IMG/VR virus record: IMGVR_UViG_3300008952_003529
DNA from: a virus
Strand: one strand, 5' to 3'
Length of the DNA: 64,000 nt
Under the pieces are notes generated by a model. The model worked only from the letters and a program-made list of their open reading frames with translations. It was not told where the DNA came from and did no database searches. Below are positions 2,981-33,033 of this stretch, piece after piece. Position numbers and translations under genes: made by a program. Positions within the stretch are counted from its first letter, which is position 1. Each line of letters opens with the position of its first letter.

Positions 2981-3006
2981 TCTCTAAAAAATAAGCGAAT
3001 ATCTCC

Positions 3007-3069: not shown

Positions 3070-3088
3070 CTTTCAACGGGGAAATTTA

Positions 3089-5228: not shown

Positions 5229-5239
5229 AAAGGAACATC

Positions 5240-6643: not shown

Positions 6644-6654
6644 GGAGTTCCGGT

Positions 6655-9162: not shown

Positions 9163-9166
9163 TGAT

Positions 9167-10142: not shown

Positions 10143-10146
10143 GGAA

Positions 10147-11106: not shown

Positions 11107-11110
11107 GATA

Positions 11111-11674: not shown

Positions 11675-11743
11675 TGATTCAACGATTTACTGAGTGATGG
11701 AGTAGCGTAGTATTATTGCGTATATTCTGCTATAGGAGAAAAC

Positions 11744-12754: not shown

Positions 12755-12763
12755 GGGAATGCT

Positions 12764-15546: not shown

Positions 15547-16253
15547 TGAGTAGAATTGAATTATATGATGACAAGATAGGCGTTGTTGAATACGTTTCCC
15601 ATATGGGAGAAGACATTACAGTTGTTAATAGCGCCAGGGTTTCTTTTGGGAAACATAAGGATGTAATGGATGACAAAGATAGAAAGCTTATTAAGTATCT
15701 TATCAAACATAAGCATACGTCAACACTCGAACACTGTGTTATAACATATCGGTTCATAGTACCCCTTTTCGTTCGAAGCCAGCATCACCGTCATCGAACA
15801 TGGAGCTATAACGAGATATCACGTCGTTATACTGACGAGAATCTCCGGTTTTATGAGCCAGCAAGTTTCAGAACGCAGCATAAATCCAATCGACAAGCTT
15901 CAAATATTAATGAGCTAAGGGACCCTGTAGTGATACCAGACCTTTCGGATACGGATTATGGTATGACTGCATCTCAAGTTGTCAGTGATCATCACCGACG
16001 TTCTGTAATGTTATACAACGATCTTCTCAGGGTAGGTGTATGCCGCGAACAGGCTCGAGGTGTTCTCTCCCAAAACCTGTACACTGAGTATTACGGAACT
16101 GTCAATTTAAACAATCTTTTAAAGTTTGTTTCGCTTCGAACCCATGACGGTGCCCAATGGGAGATTCAACAAGTAGCAAAAGCTTGTTTAGAAATTGCTA
16201 AAAATTGCTGGCCAGAAACAATAGAAGCCTATCAAGAATTAACATCATCTTGA
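15546..16253 (+). CDS. thyX: FAD-dependent thymidylate synthase
   Basis: VNSARVSF, HTSTLEH, RHRTWSYNEISRRY ThyX signature, REQARGVL, HDGAQWEI; GTG start overlapping the aceA stop. Confidence 0.95.
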   Translation: MSRIELYDDKIGVVEYVSHMGEDITVVNSARVSFGKHKDVMDDKDRKLIKYLIKHKHTSTLEHCVITYRFIVPLFVRSQHHRHRTWSYNEISRRYTDENLRFYEPASFRTQHKSNRQASNINELRDPVVIPDLSDTDYGMTASQVVSDHHRRSVMLYNDLLRVGVCREQARGVLSQNLYTEYYGTVNLNNLLKFVSLRTHDGAQWEIQQVAKACLEIAKNCWPETIEAYQELTSS

Positions 16254-17022: not shown

Positions 17023-17256
17023 ATGAACACTAATGAACTAAAAATGAATGATGATGCAATCAATCATCTCGCAAAGCTTCTGCAAATGGCTATTTTAACT
17101 GGTACTGATATTATGGACAATCTTCGTTCTGCTACATTTGTTGTACACAACGATGAGCTTCATATCCATCCAGATTATCATGAAGCGTTTGAGCAGAATA
17201 TTCAAAATATGATGTCTGCCTTGGCAACTGAAGAAGAAGTTGAAGAAGTTGAGTGA
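17023..17256 (+). CDS. Hypothetical protein
   Basis: Strong GGAGG RBS; TATAAT upstream at 16994. Confidence 0.65.
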   Translation: MNTNELKMNDDAINHLAKLLQMAILTGTDIMDNLRSATFVVHNDELHIHPDYHEAFEQNIQNMMSALATEEEVEEVE

Positions 17257-17623
17257 CAAATTAGACCAAATGTTCGCCCGGCGGACAGCGTTTATGACAC
17301 GCTTAAAGGGAAAGAAGCCAGCTGAGTATCCAGATTGGCCGATCGATTTGTCAGATAAACGAAACCAACAGCACGTAAGAGATATGGCTCTAAGGGGTGT
17401 TGAGGAAATGTTCGAGGCATTGCAGCATCTCAAAAACTGGAAACCGCATAGAGACACAGAGGTTCATGAATTTGATAGAAGCGAATTTTTGGAGGAGGTT
17501 GTTGATGCGTTTAACTACTTTATGTCAGTACTTGTCTTGACTGGAGTCGATGCTGAAGAGCTTTTTAGCGCGTACTGTGAAAAAGACCAGATAATTCATG
17601 ATCGGTTGGATGAGGGTTATTGA
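17240..17623 (+). CDS. All-alpha NTP pyrophosphatase (dimeric dUTPase / T4 gp56 dCTPase-like)
   Basis: EEMFEALQHLKNWKPH and EEVVDAFNYF acidic EE..E / E..D motifs. Exact start uncertain. Confidence 0.72.
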   Translation: MKKLSDKLDQMFARRTAFMTRLKGKKPAEYPDWPIDLSDKRNQQHVRDMALRGVEEMFEALQHLKNWKPHRDTEVHEFDRSEFLEEVVDAFNYFMSVLVLTGVDAEELFSAYCEKDQIIHDRLDEGY

Positions 17624-18527: not shown

Positions 18528-19354
18528 CAAAGAAGATTAATCAAGATCGATTAAACGAAATTATAAAAGAAGAAGTTGTTAGTCATTTTTTGATGGAATC
18601 AAACTTACGAGTGGTGAGCACCTTAACGAACCGCGTTACGCGCGCGATTCTTTTCCTTGTAAAAGATGGTAAGACAACCACTGAGGAATATCAAGTCTTG
18701 GAAGCAGACGATTTAATCGACACTGCCGGCCTACAAGATGAGACAGCTATCTACAGTCTTGATATAGATTTTCTCCCTGGAAAAATTAATCCAGACTTGG
18801 TCAGTGATGACTTCGGCGAAGACGACACTTATTTAAGCGTTTCGTTATTTATTACTCCCTCTGATGCGATCCATATTTCTGGTGATAATATCAACCGTAC
18901 GGGGAGCCCCGGAATTCATGTGGATGTATTTGCTCCGAACCCGCTCCCTGATAAGAAGCGTGCTCTTCTTCGATCTGAGATTTCGAATACTGTCCGTCAT
19001 GAGATTGAGCATATGCTTCAAGAGCTTCCAATGTATTATCGAGGGATGGAAGCTGCCGAGGGTGGAACATACGAATATGAAGACTTCGAAGTCATCGGTA
19101 CGCCGGTGTCAGATCGCGCGAAAGATTACTATCTTGATGTAAAAGAGGTCTCTGCTCATATTATGGGATATGCGCATAATGCACAATCAACAAAGGCATT
19201 AGAAAGTGAAATACGTTCCATGCTTCAGAATTGGGCTAAGCAAGATTGGGAAAAAGATCGAGAGCGATATATCGCACCTGAAGATGTAGATATTATTGCA
19301 GGCGCCTGGATGGATTGGGCAAAAAAACACCTGAGAAAACAAAGATTTCGTTGA
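18524..19354 (+). CDS. Leader-bearing protein with HExxH zinc-binding motif
   Basis: N-terminal KINQDRLNEIIKEE; VRHEIEH followed by a downstream Glu (KEVSAH), as in zincin metalloproteases. Confidence 0.6.
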   Translation: MTKKINQDRLNEIIKEEVVSHFLMESNLRVVSTLTNRVTRAILFLVKDGKTTTEEYQVLEADDLIDTAGLQDETAIYSLDIDFLPGKINPDLVSDDFGEDDTYLSVSLFITPSDAIHISGDNINRTGSPGIHVDVFAPNPLPDKKRALLRSEISNTVRHEIEHMLQELPMYYRGMEAAEGGTYEYEDFEVIGTPVSDRAKDYYLDVKEVSAHIMGYAHNAQSTKALESEIRSMLQNWAKQDWEKDRERYIAPEDVDIIAGAWMDWAKKHLRKQRFR

Positions 19355-19379
19355 AAAAGATTGCTAATTTCTCTATAAT
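19351..19379 (+). promoter_or_regulatory. Sigma70-like promoter
   Basis: TTGAAA-17 bp-TATAAT, upstream of the GGAG RBS and dnaE start. Confidence 0.75.
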
Positions 19380-19397: not shown

Positions 19398-22300
19398 ATG
19401 CGAAAGACGAAACTAATCCCACCCAGTAAATTTATCTCCCTTCATTCACATGACGGGTTTTCTACTTTTGACGGTTTGGGGTACCCACAAGAACACATCG
19501 ATTTTGTTATTGAGAATGGCATGGATGGATGGTGTCTTACTAATCATGGTCATATGAATTCTTTTGGTCATGCATTTCTCCATGCAGAAAAAGTTCAAAA
19601 GCGCGGTGGTTCGTTTAAGTTCGTTCCAGGCTGTGAAATGTATGTGCATCCTGACCTTGAAGTATGGCAGCTCGATTACGAAATTAGGCAAGCAGCAAAG
19701 AAGGGTGACAAGGAGGCTATGTTCGCTCTTAGAGAGCGTCGTGAAGCAATAACAACTCCTCTTACTGCGATCATTGATGGCGATGATGAGATTGTTGATA
19801 TAGGCAAAGAAGACGCTGGCCTCACTGTAGAAAATGAAGAGGAAACCAAGTCTGGGAAATTTTATGATCCAGTAAAGCGTCGTCATCATCTTGTGGTTTT
19901 GCCAAAGACGAGTGAAGGTCTCCAGCGCTTGTTTCATCTCGTAAGTAGAGGTTACAGAGAGGGCTTCTATAGGTTCCCCCGTGTAGACTATAGGATGTTA
20001 AGGGAAGCCGCCCAGGGTGGCCATCTGATGATTTCTACAGCATGTATCGGCGGTCCTATTGCTTATGAGGTGTTTCGACATGCTCAACAGATAGAATTTG
20101 ATGATTTAAAGCATACTTTACTTGACGATCCTTCATTTCACCGTAATGTGATGACAGGAGTTGGGAACGCGTACCAAGGTCTTGTTGATGCGGTTGGAAT
20201 GGATGATGTACATCTAGAGCTTCAATTTAACAAGCTTCCTGCACAACACCTTGTTAATCGTGCGATTATTGAATTTGCAAACAACAATGGTCTAAATGAT
20301 AAGCTTGTCGTTACAACGGATTCACATTATGCTCGTCCTGAGCATTGGCGGGAGCGTGAACTTTACAAGAAGTTGGGGTGGTTAAATTATCGTGAATTCG
20401 ACCCATCTAAGTTGCCACAATCAAGAGATGACTTGAAATGTGAACTCTATCCCAAGAATGCACATCAGGTTTGGGACACATATCTTGAGTCAGCCGATGG
20501 CATGGATTTTTATGATGATCAAATAGTAAAAGATGCGATCGAACGGCCCCATGGGATAGTACATGAGGGTATTCAAGACATTGCCCCTGACCGCACTATG
20601 AAGCTCCCATCTTACGTTGTCCCCGAAGGACAAACTGATGATAAGGCGCTTCTTGAGGCTTGTAAAAAGGGGCTTATTGAACGCGGCTTTGCAAGCGACC
20701 CGAAGTATATTGAGCGCTTGAAGTATGAGTTGAAAGTTATCAAAGACAAGAAGTTTTCTCGATACTTTTTGACCATGACGGCAATCATTAACATCGCAAG
20801 AAAAGCAATGTTGGTCGGTCCTGGCCGAGGCTCCGCCGCCGGCAGTCTTGTTGCGTATGTGCTTCGACTAACAGACGTAGATCCTTTTGAGTACGACTTA
20901 ATGTTCGAGAGATTTTTGAACCCTTCTCGAAAAGGCGCCCCTGATATTGATACCGACGTCGGTGACCGCGATCTTTTGATTCAATTAATGAAAGATGAAT
21001 GGGGTGATGAAAATATCATTCCTATTTCGAACTACAACACCTTTAAGCTAAAATCACTTGTTAAGGATATTTCTCGTTTTTATGGAATTCCATTTCACGA
21101 AGTAAATAAGGCATTGTCCACCGTCGATCAAGACGTACGGCGAGCTGTTTTTAAGCCGGGTACTGATAAGAACCTGTTTGTCCTTTTGTACGAAGACGCG
21201 CTAGCACATTCGTCGAAGTTTCGGACATTCATTGAAAAACATCCAGAAGTAGCAGAGCCTATCCAGGTTTTGTTTAAGCAGAACAAGGCCTTGGGTCGAC
21301 ATGCTGGTGGGTGTATTGTAGCAGAGAATATTTCCGAAAGAATGCCACTAATCAAAGCCCGAGGAGAGCTTCAAACTCCATGGGCCGAAGGGATGAACTA
21401 CAAACATCTTGAAACATTCGGGTGGATTAAGTTTGATCTTCTCGGCCTTGAGACACTACGGATTATCCAAAGAACGATTGAGCTTATCCTTCAACGAAAG
21501 GAGGGTATCGAAGAGCCTACATTCGAGCAGGTTTCGGAGTGGTTTGAGACTCACATGAATCCCAAGATTTTAGATTTGAATGACCAGCATGTTTATGAGC
21601 ATGTTTATGCTGAAGGTCGGTTCCCGGGTGTGTTTCAGTTGGCTAATCGAGGCTCTAGAAATCTCTTTAAGAAAGCCAAGCCAAAGAGCATTGTTGATAT
21701 TGCAACACTGACGTCGATTTATCGTCCTGGTCCACTAACTGCAAAAGTTGATAGACACTACATTAAGGCAAAGAACAATCCGGGCAGTGTGGATTATGGT
21801 CATCCGCTGATTAAAGAAGTTCTTGAAGAAACATATGGGATGATTGTTTTTCAAGAGCAAATCATGCAATTGTGCTCTGTGGTCGCTGGTTTCCCAGAAG
21901 AAGAAACCGACACTGTGCGTCGTAGTATTATGAAGAGAAAGGCATCGGAAGCAGAGGAGTCTTTGGCTCAGGCCAGAGCGATTAAGGAACAGTTCGTTGC
22001 AGGTGCTGTAGGGAATGGTGTCGATCGACAGTTGGCAGACGACCTTTACGAGAAGATTTTGTACTTCTCTGGCTATGGATTCAATAAGGCACATGCTGTT
22101 TCATATGCTATTGACTCTTACTACTGTGCTTGGCTGTTGACGTATTACGAGGAAGAGTGGCTTTGCGCTTATCTAGAAGCTATGTCTGGTAATGATAAAA
22201 AGCGAGCTAAGGCTTTTGCTGAAGTTAAGGCTCTCGGTTATCGGGTTGCTCCAATTGATATCAATTATGCAACCAAGAAGTGGACAATTCTTGAGGGGAA

Positions 22301-23006
22301 AAAGTTCATGCCATCTCTTCTTTCATGTAAGGGCATCGGTGCAGCAGCTATCGACGAGCTTGTAGCTAATCGTCCTTACCAGAAAATTGATGATTTGCTC
22401 TGGACAGAAGACGGAAAATGGAAGCACTCTAAATTTAATAAACGCGCAATGGAGGCGCTGATTAACATTCGTGCATTCGAATCAATGAACCTTATCGGCA
22501 GCGAGTTTGAGTCTTATAAACATATGCATGAAGTCTTGATTGGTAAGAATAACGATATTAAAAAATGGACTAAAAAGGATGCTGATCGCGGAAGAAGAAA
22601 TTATCGAGAAGCATTGTTAGAAACGCAAGGTTGCGGAGACTGGTCTCGCAGAGAGCGTGTCGAGAACAGCGTAAAGCACTTCGGCTCGTTTAACGCATCC
22701 ACCCTAATTTCAGACGAAGTACAAGATAAGTTAACAGAAATGAATATCCATCCTATCGATGCGATTAATGGGCATGATTTGTATTGGTTTCTCGTGTCTG
22801 AGGTGAAGCCAAAGATGACAAAGAATAATCGCCCATATTTGCTCGTTACAGCCACAGCATTGTCAGGTCAAACATACCGAATGTTTTGCTGGGGATGGGA
22901 TGGAGAGACAGAGCTACCACTTTACAGCCTTTGTGTCGCAGAAGTAAAAAAGAACGACTTTGGGTATCAAACGTCAATGAAAAAAGTAAAATTGCTACAA
23001 ATGTGA
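19398..23006 (+). CDS. dnaE: DNA polymerase III alpha subunit (family C)
   Basis: PHP domain (LHSH, TNHG, GCE, TDSHY), GPGRGSAAGSLVAY, PDIDTD, GRHAGG, KFDLLGL, FSGYGFNKAHA; C-terminal OB fold. Confidence 0.95.
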   Translation: MRKTKLIPPSKFISLHSHDGFSTFDGLGYPQEHIDFVIENGMDGWCLTNHGHMNSFGHAFLHAEKVQKRGGSFKFVPGCEMYVHPDLEVWQLDYEIRQAAKKGDKEAMFALRERREAITTPLTAIIDGDDEIVDIGKEDAGLTVENEEETKSGKFYDPVKRRHHLVVLPKTSEGLQRLFHLVSRGYREGFYRFPRVDYRMLREAAQGGHLMISTACIGGPIAYEVFRHAQQIEFDDLKHTLLDDPSFHRNVMTGVGNAYQGLVDAVGMDDVHLELQFNKLPAQHLVNRAIIEFANNNGLNDKLVVTTDSHYARPEHWRERELYKKLGWLNYREFDPSKLPQSRDDLKCELYPKNAHQVWDTYLESADGMDFYDDQIVKDAIERPHGIVHEGIQDIAPDRTMKLPSYVVPEGQTDDKALLEACKKGLIERGFASDPKYIERLKYELKVIKDKKFSRYFLTMTAIINIARKAMLVGPGRGSAAGSLVAYVLRLTDVDPFEYDLMFERFLNPSRKGAPDIDTDVGDRDLLIQLMKDEWGDENIIPISNYNTFKLKSLVKDISRFYGIPFHEVNKALSTVDQDVRRAVFKPGTDKNLFVLLYEDALAHSSKFRTFIEKHPEVAEPIQVLFKQNKALGRHAGGCIVAENISERMPLIKARGELQTPWAEGMNYKHLETFGWIKFDLLGLETLRIIQRTIELILQRKEGIEEPTFEQVSEWFETHMNPKILDLNDQHVYEHVYAEGRFPGVFQLANRGSRNLFKKAKPKSIVDIATLTSIYRPGPLTAKVDRHYIKAKNNPGSVDYGHPLIKEVLEETYGMIVFQEQIMQLCSVVAGFPEEETDTVRRSIMKRKASEAEESLAQARAIKEQFVAGAVGNGVDRQLADDLYEKILYFSGYGFNKAHAVSYAIDSYYCAWLLTYYEEEWLCAYLEAMSGNDKKRAKAFAEVKALGYRVAPIDINYATKKWTILEGKKFMPSLLSCKGIGAAAIDELVANRPYQKIDDLLWTEDGKWKHSKFNKRAMEALINIRAFESMNLIGSEFESYKHMHEVLIGKNNDIKKWTKKDADRGRRNYREALLETQGCGDWSRRERVENSVKHFGSFNASTLISDEVQDKLTEMNIHPIDAINGHDLYWFLVSEVKPKMTKNNRPYLLVTATALSGQTYRMFCWGWDGETELPLYSLCVAEVKKNDFGYQTSMKKVKLLQM

Positions 23007-23040: not shown

Positions 23041-24069
23041 TTGTACGCAGGAAGTTTCGAGAGTTTTACTGAATGTTATATTGAGTTGATTAAAGAGGTC
23101 TATAACAATCCGACCTATATGTCAGCTCCTCGTGGGCAAAAGATTAAAGAAAAACTGGGTGTTTCATTTACAATCGAGAACCCCAGAGATCGAATTCCGT
23201 ATGTTGCGGGTCGAAAATTTAGTATTTCTTATATGGTCGCTGAGCTATTGTGGTACCTTTCAGCCAATAATAAGACTGAGTGGATTTCAAGGTATTCGGC
23301 TTTCTGGAAAGATATTAGTGATGATGGTGTAACTGCAAACTCTGCTTATGGTGCCCGCTTGTTTGAGAAGCACCCCAAGATTGCCGATGGCCGTTATAGA
23401 CAGTGGCAATATGTTGTAAATGAGCTTAATCGTGATAGAGATTCTAGAAGAGCCGTGATGCACCTACGTGTTCCAGCTGATAGTATCGATGCTCGGCTTG
23501 ATGTTCCCTGTACTTTATCACTTCAATTTTTTATTCGTGATGAAAAGCTCCACATGATTGTGAATATGCGCAGTTCTGACCTTATTTTTGGGATTGCTTA
23601 TGATATACCTGCATTTACACTTTTCCAGGAAATTTTAGCTGAGCAACTGGAAGTCGGCCTCGGTTCTTATACACACATGAGTAATTCTCTTCATATTTAC
23701 GAGCGGCATTTCGAGATGGTCGAAGGTATTTTGGCCAGAGAAAATCGTACTCTTAAACTTCACGAAACTCATGGTCCAATGCCTCCACTCGGATCATTGA
23801 ATTGTAAGCAGTGGGTTCTTGAAGGGTGGATTGAGACACTAATGAAAGCTGAAGATCATATTAGCAGCTTAACTAGCCCGATAGAAATTCAGCAAGCATT
23901 TAATACTCATTTCATATCGACAGAAGAAGCTGACAACGTTTGGTCAGACTGGGCCAGGGTCTTGGCCGCACACAGATTAAGAAAGCTTGGCTTTACTGAA
24001 GATGCGAACCGTGTTCAAAACCAGACGGCATTTTCTGGTTATTCATTCAACATTAAAAAAGAGGGATAG
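23041..24069 (+). CDS. Thymidylate-synthase-fold enzyme, probable dCMP hydroxymethylase (T4 gp42-like)
   Basis: PCTLSLQFFIRDEKLHMIVNMRSSDLIFGIAYD and SLHIYERHF. Asp188 occupies the pyrimidine-specificity position that is Asn in ThyA. TTG start. Confidence 0.75.
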   Translation: MYAGSFESFTECYIELIKEVYNNPTYMSAPRGQKIKEKLGVSFTIENPRDRIPYVAGRKFSISYMVAELLWYLSANNKTEWISRYSAFWKDISDDGVTANSAYGARLFEKHPKIADGRYRQWQYVVNELNRDRDSRRAVMHLRVPADSIDARLDVPCTLSLQFFIRDEKLHMIVNMRSSDLIFGIAYDIPAFTLFQEILAEQLEVGLGSYTHMSNSLHIYERHFEMVEGILARENRTLKLHETHGPMPPLGSLNCKQWVLEGWIETLMKAEDHISSLTSPIEIQQAFNTHFISTEEADNVWSDWARVLAAHRLRKLGFTEDANRVQNQTAFSGYSFNIKKEG

Positions 24070-24071
24070 AA

Positions 24072-25196
24072 GTGACAAATTACGATTATCTTATTGTCGG
24101 CGCCGGACTTTTTGGTGCAACTTTTGCGAGGGAAATGACAGATGCTGGAAAAAAGTGCCTTGTTATTGACAAGCGTCCGCATATTGGCGGAAACGTTTAT
24201 TCAGAAAATAGGAATGGAGTTGATGTGCATGTATACGGAGCTCATATTTTTCATACTAGTAGTGATCGTATTTGGGAGTATGTAAATCGATTTGCAACAT
24301 TCAACAATTACGTCAATAAACCAAAGGTCAGGTTTGGCGATAGGATTTTTTCTTTTCCTATTAATTTAATGACGCTACACCAGCTTTGGGGTGTGATGAC
24401 ACCTGCGGAAGCCGAGGCAAAGCTTAAGGAAGTTCGTATTCCATGCGAGAATCCAGATAATTTAGAGGACTGGATCTTATCTCAAGTTGGTCGTGAAGTA
24501 TATGAGACATTCATTCGTGGATACACAATGAAGCAATGGCAAAGGGATCCTCGAGAGCTACCTGCATCAATCATTAAGCGACTTCCCATTCGTATGGTTT
24601 TCGAGGAGAATTATTTCTTTGACAAGTATCAAGGGATTCCTGTCAAAGGGTATACAGAGATGGTCAATAATATGCTTGAGGATATTACGGTCATGACCGG
24701 CATGGATTACTTCGCACAACGTGAACACTTCAATTCTTTAGCGGAAACAGTCGTATTTACTGGGAAGGTGGATGAGTATTTTGATTTTTGCCATGGTGAA
24801 CTAGAGTATAGAACTCTCCGATTTGAGCATGAAGAGCTCGAAGGGGATTTCCAGGGAAATGCAGTTGTGAACTATACCTCACCAGACATTCCCTTCACTC
24901 GAATCGTTGAGCACAAACATTTTCTACCGTCTACCGCAAGCAAGTTGCCTAATACTATTGTTACACGAGAATATTCTGACGAGTATAAGCGAGGAAAGAC
25001 GCCGTATTATCCCATTAACAATGATCGAAATAACATGATGTATAAGAAATATGCAGCGATGGCCGCCGCGGAAGATGATGTAATTTTTGGTGGTAGGTTG
25101 GCAGAGTACAAATATTATGATATGCATCAAGTTATTGGTTCTGCGCTTGTAAAAGCCAAGCGAGAGCTCAATAATCAATCAATGGAGAAAGAATGA
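24072..25196 (+). CDS. glf: UDP-galactopyranose mutase
   Basis: YDYLIVGAGLFG FAD motif, HIGGN, YGAHIFHT, RIVEHKHF, PYYPIN, GRLAEYKYYDMHQVI. Confidence 0.95.
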   Translation: MTNYDYLIVGAGLFGATFAREMTDAGKKCLVIDKRPHIGGNVYSENRNGVDVHVYGAHIFHTSSDRIWEYVNRFATFNNYVNKPKVRFGDRIFSFPINLMTLHQLWGVMTPAEAEAKLKEVRIPCENPDNLEDWILSQVGREVYETFIRGYTMKQWQRDPRELPASIIKRLPIRMVFEENYFFDKYQGIPVKGYTEMVNNMLEDITVMTGMDYFAQREHFNSLAETVVFTGKVDEYFDFCHGELEYRTLRFEHEELEGDFQGNAVVNYTSPDIPFTRIVEHKHFLPSTASKLPNTIVTREYSDEYKRGKTPYYPINNDRNNMMYKKYAAMAAAEDDVIFGGRLAEYKYYDMHQVIGSALVKAKRELNNQSMEKE

Positions 25197-25399
25197 GCCG
25201 TATTAATAGAGGCCGCCGCCGCAAAGAAGAACTTCGTGAAGTAGTAGAAGAAAATACAAAGGAACGTGCTAAACGATCGCCACAGCAGCAATTGGATTTG
25301 CTTGATGAAAGACTTGGCATCGGAATCGGAGCAGTTCGCGAACGAAAGCACTTACAGAAACTTTTAGCAAATAGTAAAAATAAAAAGGACAAAAAATGA
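25193..25399 (+). CDS. Small basic hypothetical protein
   Basis: ATGA overlaps on both sides within the operon. Confidence 0.65.
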   Translation: MSRINRGRRRKEELREVVEENTKERAKRSPQQQLDLLDERLGIGIGAVRERKHLQKLLANSKNKKDKK

Positions 25400-26451
25400 G
25401 AGTACTTTACAGCTTTTGGGGATTTATTACCCCTCTTGAGAAAAACAGCATTGTCGACACACCTGATGGTGAACGAGGAAATCGAGTTGACTGGGTAAAC
25501 GAACTATTAAAGCGCGGTCATACACCAATTCAGCTTCAAAAGATGCGTGATGACGAGCAGTATCTGGGGGTTGAGTATGACGACTCTGGTTTCCCTGATG
25601 GCGATATTCTTTATGTAGAGTGGCGCTGGCCGACCTGGAAGAATTCCGGTCAGAATCCTGTTGAGTCTGATTATAATCGCCAATGCGAAGTACTTGACTA
25701 TTACCATGAACAAGGAATTCCCATTGTGATAGTTGACGGTGATTTGAAGATGACGCCTGAGGAAGAGTTGCGCTGGCCAGATGCCATCTTAGCAGATGCA
25801 TGTGTCGACCCCCAGCACCAAACTCGTAAGCGTATTACAATTCCCTGGTGCAATTATATGAAGCGATACTTCGATCCAGTAGAATATTCGTACAATTATA
25901 CATACGTCGGTAACAATTACGAACGTGAATATCAATTCGGGAAATACTATATTGACCCAAGCCGATATCTGAGAGAGGAGGGAATCCAGACTACGATTTA
26001 TGGAAATTGGCTTCAGAAATCGCCTGAAAGAGTTGATCCGGGAGAGCTCTTAGCCAAGACGCCTTGCGTTGCGTTTGGACCTCGCTTGGCATACAAAGAT
26101 ATTTTTAGTGTATTGAACTCTTCTATCACGGTAACTCACATTACAAAGGATGCGTATACTCCATTTGGCAACATCACAGGAAGATTTTTTGAGGCGATCA
26201 AAAGTAACGTTCCTGCGTTGATTCCAATTGAGTTTCGGCATGCATTACCTGTCGGGCTAAAGGGTGGCGCTCTTGTGGTTGAAACGGCAGATGATGTGAT
26301 CGATAAGGTGAAGTGGATTTCAACGTTAAGTGCCACAGAGCGAAAAGCGCTAGTCGACGAGCAAGAAGAAGCTCTACGTACTGTTATCGACCCTCGCCCT
26401 GAATATCGCACTGATCTTCTTGAACATATTGTGGGAGATTATCAAGCATGA
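25396..26451 (+). CDS. GT-B glycosyltransferase, T4 DNA beta-glucosyltransferase-like
   Basis: C-terminal half (YVGN, IYGN, ITGRFFEAIKSNVPALIPIEF, VIDKVKWI...ERKALVDEQEEAL) parallels the T4 BGT C-terminal domain as recalled; lies between glf and a kinase gene. Confidence 0.65.
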   Translation: MRVLYSFWGFITPLEKNSIVDTPDGERGNRVDWVNELLKRGHTPIQLQKMRDDEQYLGVEYDDSGFPDGDILYVEWRWPTWKNSGQNPVESDYNRQCEVLDYYHEQGIPIVIVDGDLKMTPEEELRWPDAILADACVDPQHQTRKRITIPWCNYMKRYFDPVEYSYNYTYVGNNYEREYQFGKYYIDPSRYLREEGIQTTIYGNWLQKSPERVDPGELLAKTPCVAFGPRLAYKDIFSVLNSSITVTHITKDAYTPFGNITGRFFEAIKSNVPALIPIEFRHALPVGLKGGALVVETADDVIDKVKWISTLSATERKALVDEQEEALRTVIDPRPEYRTDLLEHIVGDYQA

Positions 26452-27011
26452 AAGTTGCATTTATTGGTCCCGATATGACGGGGAAATCGAACATCGCTGC
26501 TGAGCTTTCGAAACAAACGGGCGTTCCAGTTTTTAAGAATTCTGGAGAGTGGAAAACGCAGTTAAACAGCTCGGAGTACTTTCTTAACCTACTGAGATTT
26601 GGTGGCCCATTTTTGATGGATTTCATCCGGCAAACAAACGTATCAGTCATCTTAGACCGTTTTTATCCTTGTGAGATGGTATATTCGCAAGCTTTCGGTC
26701 GAGAAACGGACGACACCGCATTAGCGTGGATGGACAAGAATTTCGCAGAGGTAGGCGGAAAGTTCATTATTTGCGTTCGGAATGACTATTCAGATTTGAT
26801 TGATGATCAATATCCTGAAGACCTGCCGCCAAATGTATTGGGTGCTTTAACTCTTCATTATCGAAAGTTTGCTAAATGGACAGGGTGTGAATGCTTGATT
26901 TTGGAAACAGATGATATGGACCTGAACAATCAGGTAAAAAAGATTAAAATGTTCTTAGGAATTAAGAATAGGGAAGATATGCAAGCGGAGGATTTTTGTA
27001 GTCATGCGTAA
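26448..27011 (+). CDS. Deoxynucleoside monophosphate kinase (thymidylate kinase-like)
   Basis: P-loop GPDMTGKS and ILDRFYPCEMVYS motif. Confidence 0.8.
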   Translation: MKVAFIGPDMTGKSNIAAELSKQTGVPVFKNSGEWKTQLNSSEYFLNLLRFGGPFLMDFIRQTNVSVILDRFYPCEMVYSQAFGRETDDTALAWMDKNFAEVGGKFIICVRNDYSDLIDDQYPEDLPPNVLGALTLHYRKFAKWTGCECLILETDDMDLNNQVKKIKMFLGIKNREDMQAEDFCSHA

Positions 27012-27996
27012 AGCTTTAGTTACTGGCTGTTGTGGTTTTATTGGTGGACATCTTACTAGAATGTTAGTGAAAGATGGGTGGAATGTTGTTGGCGTCGACG
27101 ATCTTTCAAATGGTGATCCAGACGTCCTTCATGATATTGATATTCGATGTGTCCCACCGGCACTTCTCCCTGCCTATAACGGCGCGGAAGATGTAGACAA
27201 GACACTTATTATTACTGGTGATTTTGCAAATGAACATATTCTCATGAGAGCCGACCGCGGCGATTTTGATGTTATTTTTCATCTTGCCGCGAATCCACGG
27301 GTAGAGTATTCTGTAAAGAACCCTGCATCGACAACTCATACAAACGTCCAGAAGACGATTGAGCTAATGACTGCGGCCGTTGGAAAGATTGATCGATTTG
27401 TATTTGCTTCTTCTTCCGCAGTGTATGGTAACGGGGTTTCATTACCAACCAAAGAGTCTGAGTCAACAAATCCTCAATCTCCATACGCTCTACAGAAACT
27501 TGTAGTTGAGCAATTCGGTGAAATGTACAGTGAACTCTATGGCTTAGATTTTGTTGCATTGAGGTTTTTCAATGTATACGGCCCCGGACAGCTTGGGAGT
27601 TCTCCGTATTCTACTGCAATCGCCGCGTGGTGTGATAAGCTGAAGGCTGGAAAGCCCCTCCGAAGTGACGGGGACGGGGAGCAAAGTAGAGATATGGTTT
27701 ATGTTGAGGATGTCTCCAGGGCCCTTATTACGTGTGCAGAACGAAACAGCTCCTTTGGATTTGAAGTATATAACGTAGGCGCAGGTCAATCATTGACAAA
27801 TAATCAAATTTTGAATGGCCTTCGTGAATATTTTCCATCAATGGAAATCACGCATGCGCCTGAACGAACAGGAGACGTCAAGCATACTTTGGCTAACGTT
27901 AATAAGATTGAAACTGAAGTTCTATTTTCGGCAAAAGTACATTTTTGGCGAGGCTTACGAGACACCCTTTTATGGTGGGAGCTAATTGATGAATAA
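27004..27996 (+). CDS. NAD-dependent nucleotide-sugar epimerase/dehydratase (GalE-like extended SDR)
   Basis: VTGCCGFIGGHL, FHLAA, ASSSAVYG, SPYALQK (YxxxK), RFFNVYGP, RDMVYVED. Confidence 0.9.
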   Translation: MRKALVTGCCGFIGGHLTRMLVKDGWNVVGVDDLSNGDPDVLHDIDIRCVPPALLPAYNGAEDVDKTLIITGDFANEHILMRADRGDFDVIFHLAANPRVEYSVKNPASTTHTNVQKTIELMTAAVGKIDRFVFASSSAVYGNGVSLPTKESESTNPQSPYALQKLVVEQFGEMYSELYGLDFVALRFFNVYGPGQLGSSPYSTAIAAWCDKLKAGKPLRSDGDGEQSRDMVYVEDVSRALITCAERNSSFGFEVYNVGAGQSLTNNQILNGLREYFPSMEITHAPERTGDVKHTLANVNKIETEVLFSAKVHFWRGLRDTLLWWELIDE

Positions 27997-28426
27997 AAAC
28001 GCATGGATTGGGAAGTCAACAGTATCGGAAAAACCCTGGGGTATAGAGACTGCATGGGCTGCTCTTCCTACGATCGCTGGAAAGAAGCTGGAAATCATGG
28101 AAGGAAAATGTACGAGTCTTAAATTTCATAAACATAAGAATGAAGTCTTATTTGTCGCGATGGGGAGCGTAAATGTTATATTCGCCTCAGAGCGCCACTT
28201 TATAGACCCGGTCCAGTATCCGTCAGAGAGTAGAGATTTGGTCCCTGGCCAACTACTGAATGTACAAGCTGGATGTCCATATCGAATATATGCAAAGAAA
28301 AATTCGATTGTGTATGAAATTTCTGACGGAACTACCTCAGACCAACCCGTGCGCTTAGAAGATGAATATGGTAGGGAAATCGATGCGAATCTTACTGATT
28401 ATCGGTTTACTTATCCTAAGGAGTAG
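27986..28426 (+). CDS. Cupin-domain protein (mannose-6-phosphate isomerase type II-like)
   Basis: EKPWG, SLKFHKHKNE, PYRI, EIS...VRLED pattern. Confidence 0.7.
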   Translation: MMNKNAWIGKSTVSEKPWGIETAWAALPTIAGKKLEIMEGKCTSLKFHKHKNEVLFVAMGSVNVIFASERHFIDPVQYPSESRDLVPGQLLNVQAGCPYRIYAKKNSIVYEISDGTTSDQPVRLEDEYGREIDANLTDYRFTYPKE

Positions 28427-28447
28427 TACTTATTTCACGGAGGAAAT

Positions 28448-29287
28448 ATGAGTTCTTTAGACCCAAATTCGGTTGACGTGGTGATTTATCACGCAGACTG
28501 CACTGATGGTTTCGGTGCTGCGTATTCTGCATGGAAGTTGCTAGGAAATCGAGCTGAGTTTCATGCTTGTAAGCATGGTAACCCACCACCAAAGGTGAAG
28601 GGTAAGAACGTCGTTATTTTAGATTTTTCTTTTAGCAATGAAGTTACAAAAAAGATGATTAAGTCCGCCAAGAACTTACTGGTTATTGATCATCACAAGT
28701 CTGCGATGGTTGAGTTGCATGATATAACCAACACACATTTCGATATGACGAAATCGGGTGCAATACTTTCTTGGGAGTTCTTTCACCCAGGGAAGGAACC
28801 ACCAAAATTTATAAGGTATATCCAGGATAGAGATTTGTGGAAGTGGGAACTCGAGTATTCTAAAGAGTTTAGCGCGGCCTTCGATATGGTACCTTTTGAT
28901 TTTGAAGAATTTGAAAAATTTGAGGACGATTCAGTATTTGATGATGCAAGAAAACGCGGATCTTATATTTTGGCTTACTCAAAGACTGTTATCAAGAAAG
29001 TTTGTGAGAAAGCTGTCCCTCGTAAATATGAGGGAAAAGACATACTTGTTGTCAACGCTTCTCACTGGATGTCTGAGATCGGCGCACGCCTTTCTCCTGA
29101 TTGTGACTTTGCATTGATCTGGTATTGGGACCACGAAGATAAGGTCACCAAAGTCAGCTTACGCGCTTTCCATGAAACTATAGATGTGTCCGAAATTGCT
29201 AAAAAGTTCGGTGGCGGAGGGCACAAAAAAGCCGCCGGATTTACACTACCAAAGGAAACTCATGTCGAGGAACTTTTTGACTCTTAA
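28448..29287 (+). CDS. DHH/DHHA1 phosphoesterase
   Basis: YHADCTDG, ILDFS, IDHH, QDRDLW, GGGGHKKAAGF; GGAGG RBS. Confidence 0.88.
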   Translation: MSSLDPNSVDVVIYHADCTDGFGAAYSAWKLLGNRAEFHACKHGNPPPKVKGKNVVILDFSFSNEVTKKMIKSAKNLLVIDHHKSAMVELHDITNTHFDMTKSGAILSWEFFHPGKEPPKFIRYIQDRDLWKWELEYSKEFSAAFDMVPFDFEEFEKFEDDSVFDDARKRGSYILAYSKTVIKKVCEKAVPRKYEGKDILVVNASHWMSEIGARLSPDCDFALIWYWDHEDKVTKVSLRAFHETIDVSEIAKKFGGGGHKKAAGFTLPKETHVEELFDS

Positions 29288-29864
29288 TAATGACCCAAAG
29301 TATGACATCATATATCTTGACCCACCCTGGGATTATAAGGGCCAGCTTCAGCATTCCAAACCAGGAATGGGTGATACAGGCGGCGCTCGTAAGCATTATA
29401 GCACTCTCAAACTGAATGATCTTAAGAAGTTTCCACTTCAAAAGATTATTTCGGAAGACGGCCTTGTTTTTATGTGGGTAACGAATCCACATCTGGACCA
29501 GGGTATTGAGCTCTTAAAAAGCTGGGGGTTAAAGTATTCAACGGTTGGATTTGTCTGGAATAAGATGAGGGTTAATCCAGGCTTTTATACGATGAGTCAG
29601 TGCGAGCTGTGTATCATTGGAAAGAATGGGAAGATCCCTCGACCTCGGGGAGCCAGAAATGTTCGGCAATATCTTGAGCATATGCGAGAGCAGCACAGCA
29701 AGAAGCCAGATGAGGCCCGAGAAAGGATCGAGCAAATGTTTCCAGACCAGTCTAAGGCTGAATTATTTGCAAGGCATCAGCACCCTGGATGGGCTGCATG
29801 GGGCCATGAAGTAGAGGGCGGCTGTGTCCGTCTGGAGGAATATCTGCGTGAACTTGGATGGTAG
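29262..29864 (+). CDS. MT-A70 family amino-methyltransferase
   Basis: YDIIYLDPPW, FMWVT, WG..Y, HSKKPDE, ELFAR, GWAAWG. Start moved to ATG 29262. Confidence 0.85.
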   Translation: MSRNFLTLNNDPKYDIIYLDPPWDYKGQLQHSKPGMGDTGGARKHYSTLKLNDLKKFPLQKIISEDGLVFMWVTNPHLDQGIELLKSWGLKYSTVGFVWNKMRVNPGFYTMSQCELCIIGKNGKIPRPRGARNVRQYLEHMREQHSKKPDEARERIEQMFPDQSKAELFARHQHPGWAAWGHEVEGGCVRLEEYLRELGW

Positions 29865-30273
29865 ACCAGCATGGGACGAAATCTGGATGGATTTTGCGCA
29901 ATCTATAGCTCGCAGGAGCTATGATCCGCGTCATCAAGTGGGAGCAGTCGTAGTAACTGAAAGAAACACACAGGTGTTAGCAGTCGGCTACAACGGCAAT
30001 TATTCTGGTGGCCCTAATGAGGTGGAGTCGACAATTCCAGGCGAGTCCGGGATGATCCATGCAGAAATTAACGCTCTATTGAAGTGTGACTATAATAACG
30101 TATCTAAAAAGACAATGTACGTCACACTCAGCCCGTGTAGGATGTGTGCAAAAGCAATGGTGAATGGTGGTATTAAAGAAGTTGTTTATGATGATGAATA
30201 CAGAGATACATCTGGCCTGGATCTTCTACGAACGGCGGGAGTTGAAGTAAGGCGCCATTCAACCAAGAAATAG
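29824..30273 (+). CDS. dCMP deaminase
   Basis: RHQVGAVVV, GYNG, HAEINAL, TLSPCRMCAK zinc motifs. True start may be slightly downstream. Confidence 0.88.
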   Translation: MSVWRNICVNLDGRPAWDEIWMDFAQSIARRSYDPRHQVGAVVVTERNTQVLAVGYNGNYSGGPNEVESTIPGESGMIHAEINALLKCDYNNVSKKTMYVTLSPCRMCAKAMVNGGIKEVVYDDEYRDTSGLDLLRTAGVEVRRHSTKK

Positions 30274-32325: not shown

Positions 32326-33033
32326 ATGTCGATCAATGATAGAGAATTAGAGAAAGTAATTCGAGAGACGCTTGGATTGAAAGATACTAAGAAAACCCTG
32401 AAAGAAGCTTACGTTCTTGAAGCAGAGAAATATAATCTTACGACTGACTTGCTAAGTCAAAAAACAAACACTGCGCACCAAGAATTATTGGATGGGTATG
32501 TAGAGACATCTAACCATATTTCTGCGAAGCTTGATACCGTTGATAAGTCAGTCGCTAATTCTAATGATTCAGCGTTTCGATCTCTTAAGTGCGAGGAAGT
32601 GTATAATTTAAACGCTTCATTTCTTCATGCGTATTATTTTGATAATATAGCTGATCCTACATCAAAAATCACAATGGATTCATTAGCCTATATGAGGTTG
32701 TCTCGCGATTTTGGTACATTTGATAATTGGCAACAAGACTTTGTTGCATGTGCAATGTCTTCTCGTGAGGGATGGGCAATCACTGTTTACAATTGTTTCT
32801 TAGACCGCTTTATGAATATCGTTGTAGATCTGCATAGTATTCATGTTCCAATGAATTGTTACCCAGTAATTGTTGTTGACATGTGGGAACATGCTTATTA
32901 TCGTGATTACCTGAACGATAAGAAAAAGTATGTTTTTGCTATGATGAAAGAATTAAATTGGGATGTTGTAGAGGCTCGAGTAAAGCGCGCAGATAAATTA
33001 TCAAAATTATTTTCAAAACCCCTCGAGGTATGA
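32326..33033 (+). CDS. Fe/Mn superoxide dismutase family protein with N-terminal leader extension
   Basis: DMWEHAYY signature, N-terminal His (TAHQELL, LHAYYF), DFGTFDNW; N-terminus DRELEKVIRETL. Confidence 0.8.
   Translation: MSINDRELEKVIRETLGLKDTKKTLKEAYVLEAEKYNLTTDLLSQKTNTAHQELLDGYVETSNHISAKLDTVDKSVANSNDSAFRSLKCEEVYNLNASFLHAYYFDNIADPTSKITMDSLAYMRLSRDFGTFDNWQQDFVACAMSSREGWAITVYNCFLDRFMNIVVDLHSIHVPMNCYPVIVVDMWEHAYYRDYLNDKKKYVFAMMKELNWDVVEARVKRADKLSKLFSKPLEV

Follow-up and report, generated by a model that had tools for sequence, protein, structure and literature searches.

A putative dnaE-linked gene block for galactose-type decoration of 5-hydroxymethylcytosine DNA in an uncultured giant phage

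What use would a phage have for a UDP-galactopyranose mutase (Glf) encoded among its nucleotide and replication genes? The question is raised by a 64,000-nucleotide stretch of viral DNA (the window; IMG/VR record IMGVR_UViG_3300008952_003529), in which a ten-ORF block lies at 23041-30273, entirely on the plus strand and directly 3' of dnaE. Judging from the sequence, the best reading of this block is that it probably yields DNA carrying a galactose-type hexose on 5-hydroxymethylcytosine (hmC), with UDP-Galf as the probable donor; cytosine would most likely be replaced by hmC and the galactose-type sugar, probably as a five-membered ring, added afterwards.

Results

The block follows the gene for a DnaE-type DNA polymerase III alpha subunit (19398-23006, +; Pfam PHP, DNA_pol3_alpha, finger and HHH_6 domains), and the junctions along it measure +2, -4, -4, -4, -8, -11, +21, -104 and -41 nt. 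The -104 nt junction, between the DHH and MT-A70 genes, becomes -26 if the latter starts at the ATG at 29262, which is likely its true start. The best sigma-70-like site of the region (19351-19379, 11/12 matches) lies just 5' of dnaE, in a promoter scan whose sigma-70-like counts overall were at the level of chance. Many related metagenomic phage contigs share the order of the block, so the arrangement is not a chance one. The earlier note had described a ten-gene operon of named families after dnaE, and all ten ORFs and their family assignments were confirmed. Because the record is only ~44% complete (CheckV), gene absences in it carry little weight.

The first gene of the block (23041-24069, +) encodes a ThyA-fold enzyme (PF00303 Thymidylat_synt, 6.8e-35), predicted to be a dCMP 5-hydroxymethylase of the gp42 type. 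Its best solved relative was the CMP hydroxymethylase MilA (4.9e-42; 3.7e-16 for T4 dCMP hydroxymethylase), which it resembles in overall length and in a C-terminal extension of ~100 aa. Residues D154, C157, S178, D180 and D188 correspond to L143D, C146, S167, D169 and N177D in E. coli numbering, and R136 to E. coli R126. At positions 143, 169 and 177 the enzyme is identical to T4 gp42, whereas true thymidylate synthases (TSs) have L143 and N177 where it has Asp. Read by published rules for these three positions (PMC13326640), and with S167 and R126 of the deoxyribose type, in contrast to Ala and Lys in MilA (PMC5175136), the signature points to dCMP hydroxymethylation rather than to dTMP, hmU, 5-hydroxycytosine or CMP chemistry. 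A separate flavin-dependent thymidylate synthase, ThyX (15546-16253, +; Pfam Thy1, 2.2e-46), supplies dTMP, so that the ThyA-fold homologue can serve cytosine chemistry instead. The active-site signature makes hmC synthesis by the phage very likely and, together with ThyX, backs the previous proposal of hmC as the modified base.

An all-alpha NTP pyrophosphohydrolase of the MazG/dimeric-dUTPase superfamily (17240-17623, +; phrog_12184, 1.3e-17; Pfam dUTPase_2, 23.2 bits, just over the cut-off of 22.9) is conserved 5' of dnaE across many of the related loci; in two of these (L065/L067) it stands directly 5' of Glf. It is a candidate dCTPase and a putative functional analogue of T4 gp56. The dCMP deaminase that ends the block (29824-30273, +; PF00383, 3.4e-23; phrog_174, 1.4e-50) has the HAE and PCxxC zinc motifs and is predicted to provide ThyX with dUMP, the part played by Cd for Td in T4. 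Together with ThyX, these two enzymes round out a T4-like nucleotide scheme. The P-loop kinase (26448-27011, +) matched AAA_28 and, weakly, a thymidylate-kinase PHROG; its family profile was best against SPbeta YorR (2axp, 4.1e-13), followed by dGK and TMPK, and Pfam Thymidylate_kin was matched by 9 of the 27 family members. The previous label of dNMP kinase holds in that the enzyme is dNK/TMPK-like, but it is no relative of T4 gp1. Its gene adjoins that of the glycosyltransferase (GT) in nearly all related loci, and it would serve as an hm-dCMP kinase.

Glf (24072-25196, +; Pfam GLF, 7.6e-78) scored 367.1 bits against TIGR00031, over the NCBIfam equivalog cut-off of 303.75, and matched E. coli Glf (1i8t) at 2.1e-125. 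Enzymes of this kind interconvert UDP-Galp and UDP-Galf. The GalE-like extended SDR (27004-27996, +; PF01370 Epimerase, 4.3e-50) carries GxxGxxG at residue 8, a Ser-type SSSAVYG at 136 and YxxxK at 161. GalE was its best NCBIfam model, at 149 bits and under the cut-off of 262, and its best solved relatives are 4-epimerases (6dnt, 6wjb, 4zrm, WbgU and WbpP), which suggests a UDP-hexose/UDP-HexNAc 4-epimerase type. The closest of the solved relatives favour N-acetylated sugars, which counts against a plain GalE role. The earlier note had named both a Glf and an epimerase, and these assignments stand; its alternative of L-arabinofuranose finds no support, as no UDP-xylose-forming genes lie within the cluster.

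Directly 3' of the SDR gene, here as always, lies that of a small cupin (27986-28426, +; weak Pfam match; AlphaFold model of cupin fold, pLDDT 92.5) whose matches were to generic cupins only. K46, K51, E53, C97, Y99, E111 and D126 are invariant in the family alignment (A2), across which the usual cupin His metal ligands are not conserved, and atlas neighbours carry Cupin_2, MannoseP_isomer or Lyx_isomer. The stand-alone DHH/DHHA1 phosphoesterase (28448-29287, +; Pfam DHHA1 and DHH; phrog_4771, 2.3e-77) has a DHH motif at residue 81, GGGH at 256 and weak PDB matches to NrnA-type enzymes; it is distantly NrnA-like and may serve in nucleotide salvage. The cupin and the DHH protein are conserved together with the SDR, yet have no step in the hmC-sugar scheme. 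The MT-A70 family DNA N6-adenine methyltransferase (29184-29864, +; PF05063, 1.8e-25; phrog_359, 2.4e-63) has DPPW at residue 46. A strongly basic 68-aa protein (25193-25399, +; pI 10.7), its ORF overlapping both neighbours by ATGA and preceded by GGAG, matched no family, is the sole block member without a counterpart in the 62 related loci and, like the cupin and the DHH protein, has no step in the scheme.

Encoded between Glf and the kinase, the candidate hmC-DNA GT (25396-26451, +) showed only a weak Glyco_trans_1_2 match, but its AlphaFold model (pLDDT 91.6) has a GT-B fold and T4 BGT (1c3j) as its top Foldseek match (4.9e-10). Its profile alignment with T4 BGT (hhalign, E 1e-4) places R263 and E266 on the BGT ITLRVWE motif, the UDP-sugar-binding R-x-x-E. 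Structural scores (VIA) were Z 22.9 for T4 BGT and 21-22 for BshA, PimA and AGT; the BGT score is thus within ~1 Z of those for GT4 enzymes acting on small molecules or lipids. The Pfam T4 BGT family gave no match at E 0.01, and with a pI of 4.87 (family median 6.0) the protein is acidic, unlike the basic T4 BGT (pI 9.05). The description 'BGT-like' therefore survives for the modelled structure, of which T4 BGT is nominally the best match, but not at the level of sequence, at which the enzyme is no member of the BGT family. The search found 194 homologues, a family of ~190 proteins that has so far come from uncultured phages alone.

Linkage was compared among 62 related loci that carry this GT. 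Of the loci with enough sequence around the GT, nearly all have a D/S/D/D-signature TS homologue no more than ~5 kb from it; a motif scan found this TS in 51 loci and a variant with N143 in 2 more, and missed L065/L067, where the same signature is present. These two loci hold the minimal string NTP-PPase-Glf-kinase-GT-TS-deaminase-dnaE. Glf stands beside the TS/GT/kinase module in three separate GT lineages, and the maximum-likelihood tree of the GT forces at least three changes of the Glf label, so Glf joined the module at least three separate times. Linkage of Glf to this module thus recurs in related and unrelated phages.

Discussion

We propose that the block encodes a pathway that replaces cytosine in the phage's own DNA and decorates it with a sugar; for this reading with galactofuranosyl-hmC as its product we regard the case as evenly balanced. 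The NTP pyrophosphohydrolase would convert dCTP to dCMP, and the ThyA-fold enzyme, as predicted from its active-site signature, dCMP to 5-hydroxymethyl-dCMP. The P-loop kinase would raise this to the diphosphate and host NDK to hm-dCTP, which DnaE would build into DNA, while the dCMP deaminase and ThyX would keep up the supply of dTTP. On the sugar side, the substrates follow from family membership: the SDR would make UDP-Galp from host UDP-Glc, Glf would turn it into UDP-Galf, and the GT-B enzyme would attach the sugar to hmC in DNA through the hydroxymethyl group of the base. That this GT glycosylates hmC seems to us rather likely; that the sugar it delivers is Galf is an even call.

Of the alternatives, the one that survives best, although we think it somewhat doubtful, is that the GT makes hexopyranosyl-hmC (Glc or Galp), and UDP-Galf is spent elsewhere, by a different transferase adding a second sugar or on a glycan of the virion or cell surface. 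GT orthologues of 40-60% identity occur in phages with the SDR but without Glf, and a search for GT residues tracking the presence of Glf found none, so the donor could be a pyranose everywhere. Most of the known bacterial galactofuranosyltransferases are not BGT-like. Moreover, some 100 kb away in the same genome (G000 9.9-17.7 kb and 28-30 kb) lie four GT2 genes, one GT6, one Glyco_trans_1_2-like gene and two GT1 matches, which might be what actually consumes UDP-Gal or UDP-Galf, in making virion glycans for instance. However, GT2, GT1 and Glyco_trans_1_2 matches are all lacking from the 180 and 188 kb available for two Glf-bearing close relatives (67-69% complete), leaving the adjacent GT as the only visible user of UDP-Galf within the sequenced part. 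As four GT2 genes occur in a relative without Glf, the GT2 arrays do not track Glf. The place of Glf between TS and GT, tightly packed with its neighbours, and its repeated independent gain by the module also argue for the furanose donor.

It is unlikely that the sugar genes and the GT are not directed at DNA at all, being protein or envelope glycosylation genes in an early/replication region, with the DNA left as plain hmC or the GT acting on a nucleotide or small molecule. The acidity of the GT, structural scores for BshA, SenB and pterin glucosyltransferases as high as for DNA glucosyltransferases, and the phage's clear endowment with other glycosylation systems are consistent with this. 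Against it, a gp42-type TS and a nucleotide kinase almost invariably accompany the GT family, in ~60 loci and down to 25-30% identity, and the BGT R-x-x-E motif aligns. Unglycosylated hmC, besides, is exposed to McrBC-type systems.

We find it quite improbable that the sugar is N-acetylated, with the SDR a UDP-GlcNAc/GalNAc 4-epimerase and the mutase acting like the bifunctional Campylobacter UNGM to give GalNAc(f)-hmC. The UDP-HexNAc 4-epimerases among the SDR's best solved relatives (6dnt, 6wjb, WbgU and WbpP) suggest it, as does C. jejuni UNGM (4mo2, 7.6e-120), which ranks second among the solved matches of the mutase; the Thr in the SDR's KHTLAN is presumably the small residue that is Ser in WbpP and a bulky Tyr in E. 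coli GalE. However, the mutase matches E. coli Glf better still and clears the cut-off of the Glf equivalog model. At the places of Arg59 and Arg168, which UNGM presumably needs although a literature check found nothing on this, it has His and Lys.

Very improbable, finally, is another product of the TS homologue (the 5-hydroxy-dCMP of RB69/RL38J1, the 5-hydroxymethyl-dUMP of SPO1, or, like MilA, hm-CMP destined for a nucleoside): MilA is its closest solved relative, the deaminase could feed a dUMP-using enzyme and the only published Glf-linked DNA sugar is on 5-hydroxycytosine, but the enzyme keeps the D169 that is Asn in all tested 5-hydroxycytosine synthases, those of RB69 and RL38J1 included, its Asp rather than Asn at 177 indicates a cytosine, not uracil, substrate, S167 and R126 reverse MilA's preference for CMP, and ThyX is there to take dUMP.

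If the galactofuranosyl-hmC reading is true, the DNA of this phage would be resistant to restriction and CRISPR nucleases, and the uncultured giant phage is predicted to hold a new variant of T4-style DNA camouflage. The earlier note knew of no Glf-fed DNA glycosylation pathway, a statement since overtaken: one has been proposed for Rhizobium phage RL38J1, acting on 5-hydroxycytosine (PMC13326640, 2026). The association recurs in independent phages. Pootjesviridae have Glf, and galactose is the base-proximal sugar on their DNA. In Lactobacillus phage ATCCB, the genes for Glf, a TS of the gp42 type and a genuine homologue of T4 BGT (31% identity, 5e-49) are neighbours. The system proposed here would resemble that of T4, except that its sugar donor is of the galactose type.

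Organisation of the gene block downstream of dnaE

The window is the terminal 64 kb of one virus contig of 178,344 bp, whose record is only ~44% complete (CheckV). Between 19398 and 30273 all sizeable ORFs lie on the + strand. dnaE (19398-23006) is followed by ten genes with junctions of +2, -4, -4, -4, -8, -11, +21, -104 and -41 nt. In order, these encode a ThyA-fold protein (TS homologue, 23041-24069), UDP-galactopyranose mutase (Glf, 24072-25196), a 68-aa protein without a family (25193-25399), a weakly recognised glycosyltransferase (GT, 25396-26451), a P-loop kinase (26448-27011), an extended SDR 'epimerase' (27004-27996), a cupin, a DHH/DHHA1 protein, an MT-A70 protein and, ending at 30273, a dCMP deaminase. 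The earlier note had read this block as an operon for furanosyl-hydroxymethylcytosine (hmC), and the family names that it assigned agree with Pfam, PHROGs and NCBIfam. Megablast found no counterpart of the block in 50,697 phage records, and a promoter and terminator scan returned counts no better than chance. The 534-aa gene 3' of the deaminase had no family, PHROG or atlas match and was left outside the system.

The TS homologue carries a dCMP hydroxymethylase signature

The TS homologue matched PF00303 (6.8e-35) and has the full set of catalytic-site residues, C157, E68, R177, H218 and Y220 (equivalent to E. coli C146, Glu58, R166 and H207/Y209). Its closest solved relative is MilA (4.9e-42), and T4 dCMP hydroxymethylase scored 3.7e-16; judged by sequence, the protein is nearer to the solved cytosine hydroxymethylases than its Pfam label implies. 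We aligned it with T4 gp42, with the 5-hydroxy-dCMP synthases of RB69 and RL38J1, and with two genuine thymidylate synthases drawn from phage records. In this alignment D154 occupies the L143 site of E. coli TS, D188 the N177 site, and D180 is the conserved Asp169, which is exactly the pattern of gp42. The N177D change confers cytosine preference, and an acidic residue at 143, which gives water access, accompanies a hydroxymethyl or other non-methyl product (PMC13326640). D169N has been proposed as diagnostic of the flavin-dependent 5-hydroxy-dCMP synthases of the RB69 gp48, DLP3 gp80 and RL38J1 type (PMC13326640). This marker is missing from the TS homologue (D180), and RB69 and RL38J1 have Asn in the same column. 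In MilA, Ala176 and Lys133 select ribose, and Ser plus Arg at these positions switch the enzyme to dCMP (PMC5175136); the TS homologue has the deoxyribose-type residues S178 (= Ser167) and R136 (= Arg126).

On these active-site residues we rejected hmU (D188), 5-hydroxycytosine (D180 kept) and CMP-derived (S178/R136) products as unlikely. The choice of hmC as the base in the earlier note was borne out by the gp42-type signature, together with a separately encoded ThyX (15546-16253). The block very probably makes hmC, with the TS homologue as the predicted dCMP hydroxymethylase.

Nucleotide supply

With ThyX and the dCMP deaminase at the end of the block, dTMP supply is covered independently. 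The deaminase was recognised by PF00383 (3.4e-23) and phrog_174 (1.4e-50) and has zinc motifs HAE at 79 and PCRMC at 104. An all-alpha NTP pyrophosphohydrolase at 17240-17623 (phrog_12184, 1.3e-17; Pfam dUTPase_2 barely above cut-off) is a plausible candidate for the dCTPase, and a Pfam MazG search of the ~44%-complete genome record was negative. Directly before thyX lies a row of glutamine-synthetase-like (11744-12754), malate synthase (12764-14308) and isocitrate lyase (14308-15546) genes, named by Pfam; the last two have the gene content of a phage-encoded glyoxylate shunt.

The kinase family profile (27 members) matched SPbeta prophage YorR in the PDB (4e-13), followed by deoxyguanosine kinase and thymidylate kinases, and 9 of the 27 members matched Pfam Thymidylate_kin. 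The T4 gp1 structures (1dek/1del) were not among the PDB matches in single-sequence or profile searches. These matches place the enzyme in the dNK/TMPK group of nucleoside/nucleotide kinases, with no relation to gp1. The dNMP kinase of the earlier note thus holds as a nucleoside/nucleotide kinase in the gp1 slot, but its family, by profile search, is not that of T4 gp1.

Predicted genes for the sugar donor

Glf scored 367.1 bits against TIGR00031 (equivalog cut-off, 303.75) and 7.6e-78 against GLF, has an N-terminal FAD Rossmann domain (NAD_binding_8, 6.9e-21), and matched E. coli Glf (1i8t) over its full length (2.1e-125, residues 4-365). The SDR has the motifs GxxGxxG at 8, the Ser motif at 136 and YxxxK at 161. 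Its top solved relatives, 6dnt, 6wjb, 4zrm, WbgU and WbpP, are all 4-epimerases, and it falls short of the GalE equivalog TIGR01179 (149.1 bits; cut-off, 262.3). It may accept UDP-Glc, UDP-GlcNAc or both. For the mutase, the comparison is with the bifunctional UNGM, which would need Arg59 and Arg168 where Glf has His and Lys; a literature search on this rule returned nothing. The pairing of Glf with a GalE-like SDR of the 4-epimerase type is therefore as the earlier note had it, by equivalog score for Glf and by motifs and solved relatives for the SDR. 4,6-Dehydratases are marked by an Asp-Glu pair that epimerases lack; the SDR reads Ser-Ser-Ser-Ala-Val-Tyr-Gly, not the Thr-Asp-Glu type, and on this ground and that of its relatives we rejected a dehydratase.

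No sugar-1-phosphate nucleotidyltransferase (NTP_transferase) was found in the available, ~44%-complete genome sequence. The starting UDP-sugar would be supplied by the host. L-Arabinofuranose, offered by the earlier note as the alternative sugar, found no support within the block, which has no UDP-xylose-forming genes.

The glycosyltransferase resembles T4 BGT in fold

The GT (351 aa) has ~194 homologues, none of them a named protein; most are encoded on large contigs of metagenomic or viral origin. Its AlphaFold model, built on a 30-sequence alignment, is a confident GT-B fold (pLDDT 91.6). T4 BGT was the best match of this model both in Foldseek (4.9e-10) and in VIA-align (Z 22.9, 305 residues, rmsd 3.6). 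BshA, PimA, T4 AGT and others stayed within 1-2 Z of BGT, the GT4 enzymes within about 1, so fold alone cannot single out BGT. The GT family profile aligned with T4 BGT in hhalign at E ~1e-4 (probability 54-58%), a weakly positive result; a full-length alignment, of low confidence, came only from a local run with permissive settings, and a global run gave none. Within this weak profile match, the family-invariant R263 and E266 align with the Arg and Glu of the BGT motif ITLRVWE (Arg269/Glu272), which we take to contact the phosphate and ribose of UDP-glucose. The BGT catalytic base Asp100 falls near D68/D70 in the low-confidence N-terminal part; invariant Asp residues of the family include D70, D92, D114 and D134.

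The GT did not match Pfam T4-Gluco-transf (CAZy GT63) at E 0.01, found no PDB sequence at E 10 (phmmer), and found nothing in tblastn against the 50,697 phage records. It is also acidic (pI 4.87 vs 9.05 for BGT), a point of caution if it is to bind DNA. The earlier note's BGT-like enzyme is thus only partly borne out: BGT is nominally the best structural match and R-x-x-E aligns weakly, but the protein is acidic and outside the Pfam and CAZy families, and other GT-B enzymes come close. We consider it likely that the GT glycosylates hmC in DNA, and galactofuranose is, at even chances, the predicted sugar that it delivers.

Glf is repeatedly linked to the GT module in related phages

The strongest evidence for the system is linkage across genomes. 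We tabulated the block members by tblastn over the loci of GT homologues (5 from assemblies and 57 from IMG/VR). In nearly all of these 62 loci that were long enough, the TS homologue lay at most ~5 kb from the GT. The kinase adjoined the GT almost everywhere, and most loci had the SDR and the dCMP deaminase. Cupin and DHH genes occurred in a subset, the cupin always straight after the SDR. By motif scan, 51 loci have a TS homologue with the D/S/D/D signature, and in two more position 143 is Asn; the TS homologue of locus L065, missed by the scan, has the same signature in the alignment.

Glf appeared in three settings. It occurs in the clade of the window itself (GT at least 70% identical); in locus L060 (GT 40% identical), in the order SDR-Glf-kinase-GT-SDR-TS; and in loci L065/L067 (GT 30% identical), in the order NTP-PPase-Glf-kinase-GT-TS-deaminase-dnaE. 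The L065/L067 loci (7900-15643, on IMG/VR contigs of 62 and 113 kb) represent a minimal module in a distant phage, with a TS of 262 aa and a TMPK-like kinase and without epimerase, cupin or DHH. The earlier note had named lack of linkage between glf and the hydroxymethylase in relatives as grounds for giving up its reading; the two are linked in three GT lineages. Mapped on a maximum-likelihood tree built from 49 distinct GTs, Glf must have been gained or lost three or more times across branches with good support, which indicates that it repeatedly came or went at precisely this module. Its repeated recruitment suggests selection for changing the sugar.

Several Glf-less relatives, among loci L004, L047-L054 and L058-L060, have a pair of distinct SDR epimerase/dehydratase genes around GT and TS and a thymidine kinase, which suggests that sugars vary further within this group of phages. 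Contigs of the clade come from freshwater or wastewater samples. An IMPDH/GMP-reductase-like gene is also present in L004 and L060. In a 258-kb relative (L006 1027-3291), dnaE is interrupted by inteins, with Pfam Intein_splicing matches on two DnaE fragments.

Possible consumers of UDP-Galf

About 100 kb upstream of the window, at 9.9-17.7 kb of the full contig (2936-10662 of the excised locus, L076), lie four GT2 genes, one GT6 gene, a methyltransferase and a Glyco_trans_1_2-like gene, and two more GT1 matches were found at 28.3-29.9 kb. GT6 enzymes use UDP-Gal or UDP-GalNAc. These distant arrays could consume UDP-Gal or UDP-Galf, and the 9.9-17.7 kb array could act on virion proteins or build a longer DNA-linked glycan. 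In two close Glf-bearing relatives (180 and 188 kb, 67-69% complete), no GT2, GT1 or Glyco_trans_1_2 gene was found, and four GT2 genes are present in a relative without Glf. GT2 genes absent with Glf and present without it indicate that the arrays do not track Glf. The two Glf-bearing relatives, as sequenced, show no consumer of UDP-Galf other than the adjacent GT.

We also looked for GT residues that follow the presence of Glf. Over three Glf-bearing lineages, a comparison of low power, none was found; the sole column with disjoint residue sets was uninformative because it varied among the Glf-bearing rows. Two scenarios agree with this result: all members use a pyranose donor, or all use a furanose donor and the host Glf fills in. 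The near-universal phage 4-epimerase argues that the donor of the family is galacto-configured and not glucose. Tentatively, the whole GT family (~190 proteins of uncultured large DnaE phages) may consist of DNA galactofuranosyltransferases that place D-Galf directly on 5-hydroxymethylcytosine, the Glf-less members borrowing the Glf of the host; we hold this broader reading to be rather less likely than its opposite. Taken as a whole, the interpretation in the earlier note is supported in part: it gains from the hmC signature and the Glf linkage, but is weakened by a GT outside the BGT family and by the lack of a GT residue pattern tracking Glf.

Accessory genes

The cupin was modelled with pLDDT 92.5. 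It had no significant PDB match by sequence or profile, and a fold search returned only generic cupins (vicilins, quercetinase, KdgF), with the CapF cupin at rank 41. The PHROG label 'cysteine dioxygenase' was rejected on the ground that the canonical His metal ligands are not conserved. By eye only, its motif type resembles type II phosphomannose isomerase. Its neighbours in language-model space have Cupin_2, mannose-6-phosphate-isomerase or lyxose-isomerase domains, a hint that it handles sugars beside the SDR. The DHH protein has intact DHH and GGGH motifs and only remote NrnA-type similarity; a place in nucleotide salvage is a guess. If the reading of the GT family is true, the conserved SDR-cupin-DHH trio would be a submodule for donor supply or nucleotide salvage.

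The 68-aa ORF between Glf and GT encodes a very basic protein (pI 10.7), with ATGA overlaps at both ends and GGAG upstream. tblastn found no homologue in relatives; these lack the insert and have Glf abutting the GT directly, or the kinase between the two in L060 and L065/L067. The MT-A70 protein, with DPPW, is by its sequence an ordinary DNA adenine methyltransferase, and relatives have other methyltransferases at or near its position. Elsewhere in the window (2174-10142, 32326-33033 and 44874-46466) are host-like genes for a gp32-like SSB, RecA, a 5'-3' exonuclease and a DnaB-like helicase. Genes for a class I/II RNR large subunit, a NifU-like Fe-S scaffold, ClpP, an Fe/Mn superoxide dismutase and a GroEL-family chaperonin are also present in these regions.

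Significance

Sugar-coated cytosines are a main means by which phages escape restriction enzymes and CRISPR nucleases, and they drive the evolution of type IV restriction. The cytosine sugars known are glucose and gentiobiose, to which 2026 added, on 5-hydroxycytosine, arabinofuranose and chains of galactose/glucose. Galactofuranose on hydroxymethylcytosine would be new. If the reading is true, no DNA base decorated with a hexofuranose would have been known before, and the GTs would form a new DNA-glycosyltransferase family apart from GT63 and GT72. The module itself is widespread in uncultured large phages. Galf-hmC would presumably go unseen by enzymes that recognise glucosyl-hmC and would offer a useful new handle for enzymatic DNA labelling. 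Five small genes, those for the TS homologue, kinase, epimerase, Glf and GT, would suffice for a bench test.

Comparison with known systems

In the literature searched, only PMC13326640 links Glf to DNA hypermodification. An hmC-based, Glf-linked system with this GT family is undescribed there; Glf-fed DNA glycosylation itself has already been proposed for Rhizobium phage RL38J1. RL38J1 and the Pootjesviridae have glycosylated 5-hydroxycytosine with an ether-linked, base-proximal galactose, and synthesis of UDP-Galf by the phage mutase was proposed for RL38J1 (PMC13326640, NAR 2026). They share with the block a phage Glf, a cytosine-modifying enzyme of the TS superfamily, a nucleotide kinase and GT-B enzymes for glycosylating DNA, a role that is predicted in the block. 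However, RL38J1 makes 5-hydroxycytosine with a D169N flavin-dependent synthase, whereas the block has a folate-type hydroxymethylase signature with D169 kept. Glf lies far from the TS and GT genes in RL38J1 and is wedged between them in the block, and the GT families differ and the phage lineages are unrelated. RB69 and Acinetobacter phage DLP3 have arabinofuranosyl-5-hydroxycytosine, with the sugar derived from ribulose-5-phosphate (PMC13326640). There too GT-B enzymes put a furanose from a phage-built NDP-sugar on a C5-oxygenated cytosine in DNA, as is predicted for the block, but these phages attach a pentose to 5-hydroxycytosine and lack Glf.

The cultured Lactobacillus siphovirus ATCCB has TS, beta-glucosyltransferase and Glf genes side by side (MK504445 34336-37391; L001 10337-13392). 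As in the block, a gp42-type TS (E143, D169, D177) stands beside Glf and a homologue of DNA glucosyltransferases. Unlike the block GT, that of ATCCB is truly homologous to BGT (31% identity to T4 BGT, 5e-49), and this small phage of Gram-positive hosts has no epimerase, cupin or DHH. The related Enterococcus phages VPE25 and VFW have glycosylated cytosine (PMC4999554), and a search with the block TS homologue ranked those of all three phages among its best phage hits. The literature searched held no description of ATCCB DNA chemistry; the phage is a tractable system for asking whether a BGT-type enzyme accepts UDP-Galf. In T4-like Tulanevirus phages of Aeromonas, such as Aes012 (NC_020879; L075 5004-8278), Glf (35% identity) is followed by two ~350-aa hypothetical proteins beside motA, and one of these two proteins showed no profile similarity to the GT family. 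MilA, the CMP 5-hydroxymethylase of mildiomycin synthesis (PDB 5jnh, 5b6d), shares with the TS homologue its length, a C-terminal extension and Asp at 143 and 177, and differs in having Ala176/Lys133 in place of Ser/Arg.

The T4 glucosyl-hmC pathway has the logic and enzyme roles predicted for the block (gp56, gp42, gp1, Cd and the alpha- and beta-glucosyltransferases). The block and T4 have in common the gp42 D/D/D signature, a dCMP deaminase and a GT-B enzyme of BGT length (351 aa), nominally closest to BGT in structure, with a weakly aligned R-x-x-E. Unlike BGT, the GT is acidic and no member of the Pfam T4 BGT family, and the kinase is dNK/TMPK-like rather than gp1-like. The candidate dCTPase is of the all-alpha MazG/dimeric-dUTPase type, not gp56-like, dTMP comes via ThyX, and the polymerase is DnaE. 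T4 uses host UDP-glucose, whereas the block encodes its own donor genes, and this phage-borne 4-epimerase and Glf point to galactose, probably in the furanose form. By this comparison, the system would be T4-like, with non-homologous replacements (kinase, candidate dCTPase, ThyX and DnaE) and phage-encoded synthesis of the sugar donor.
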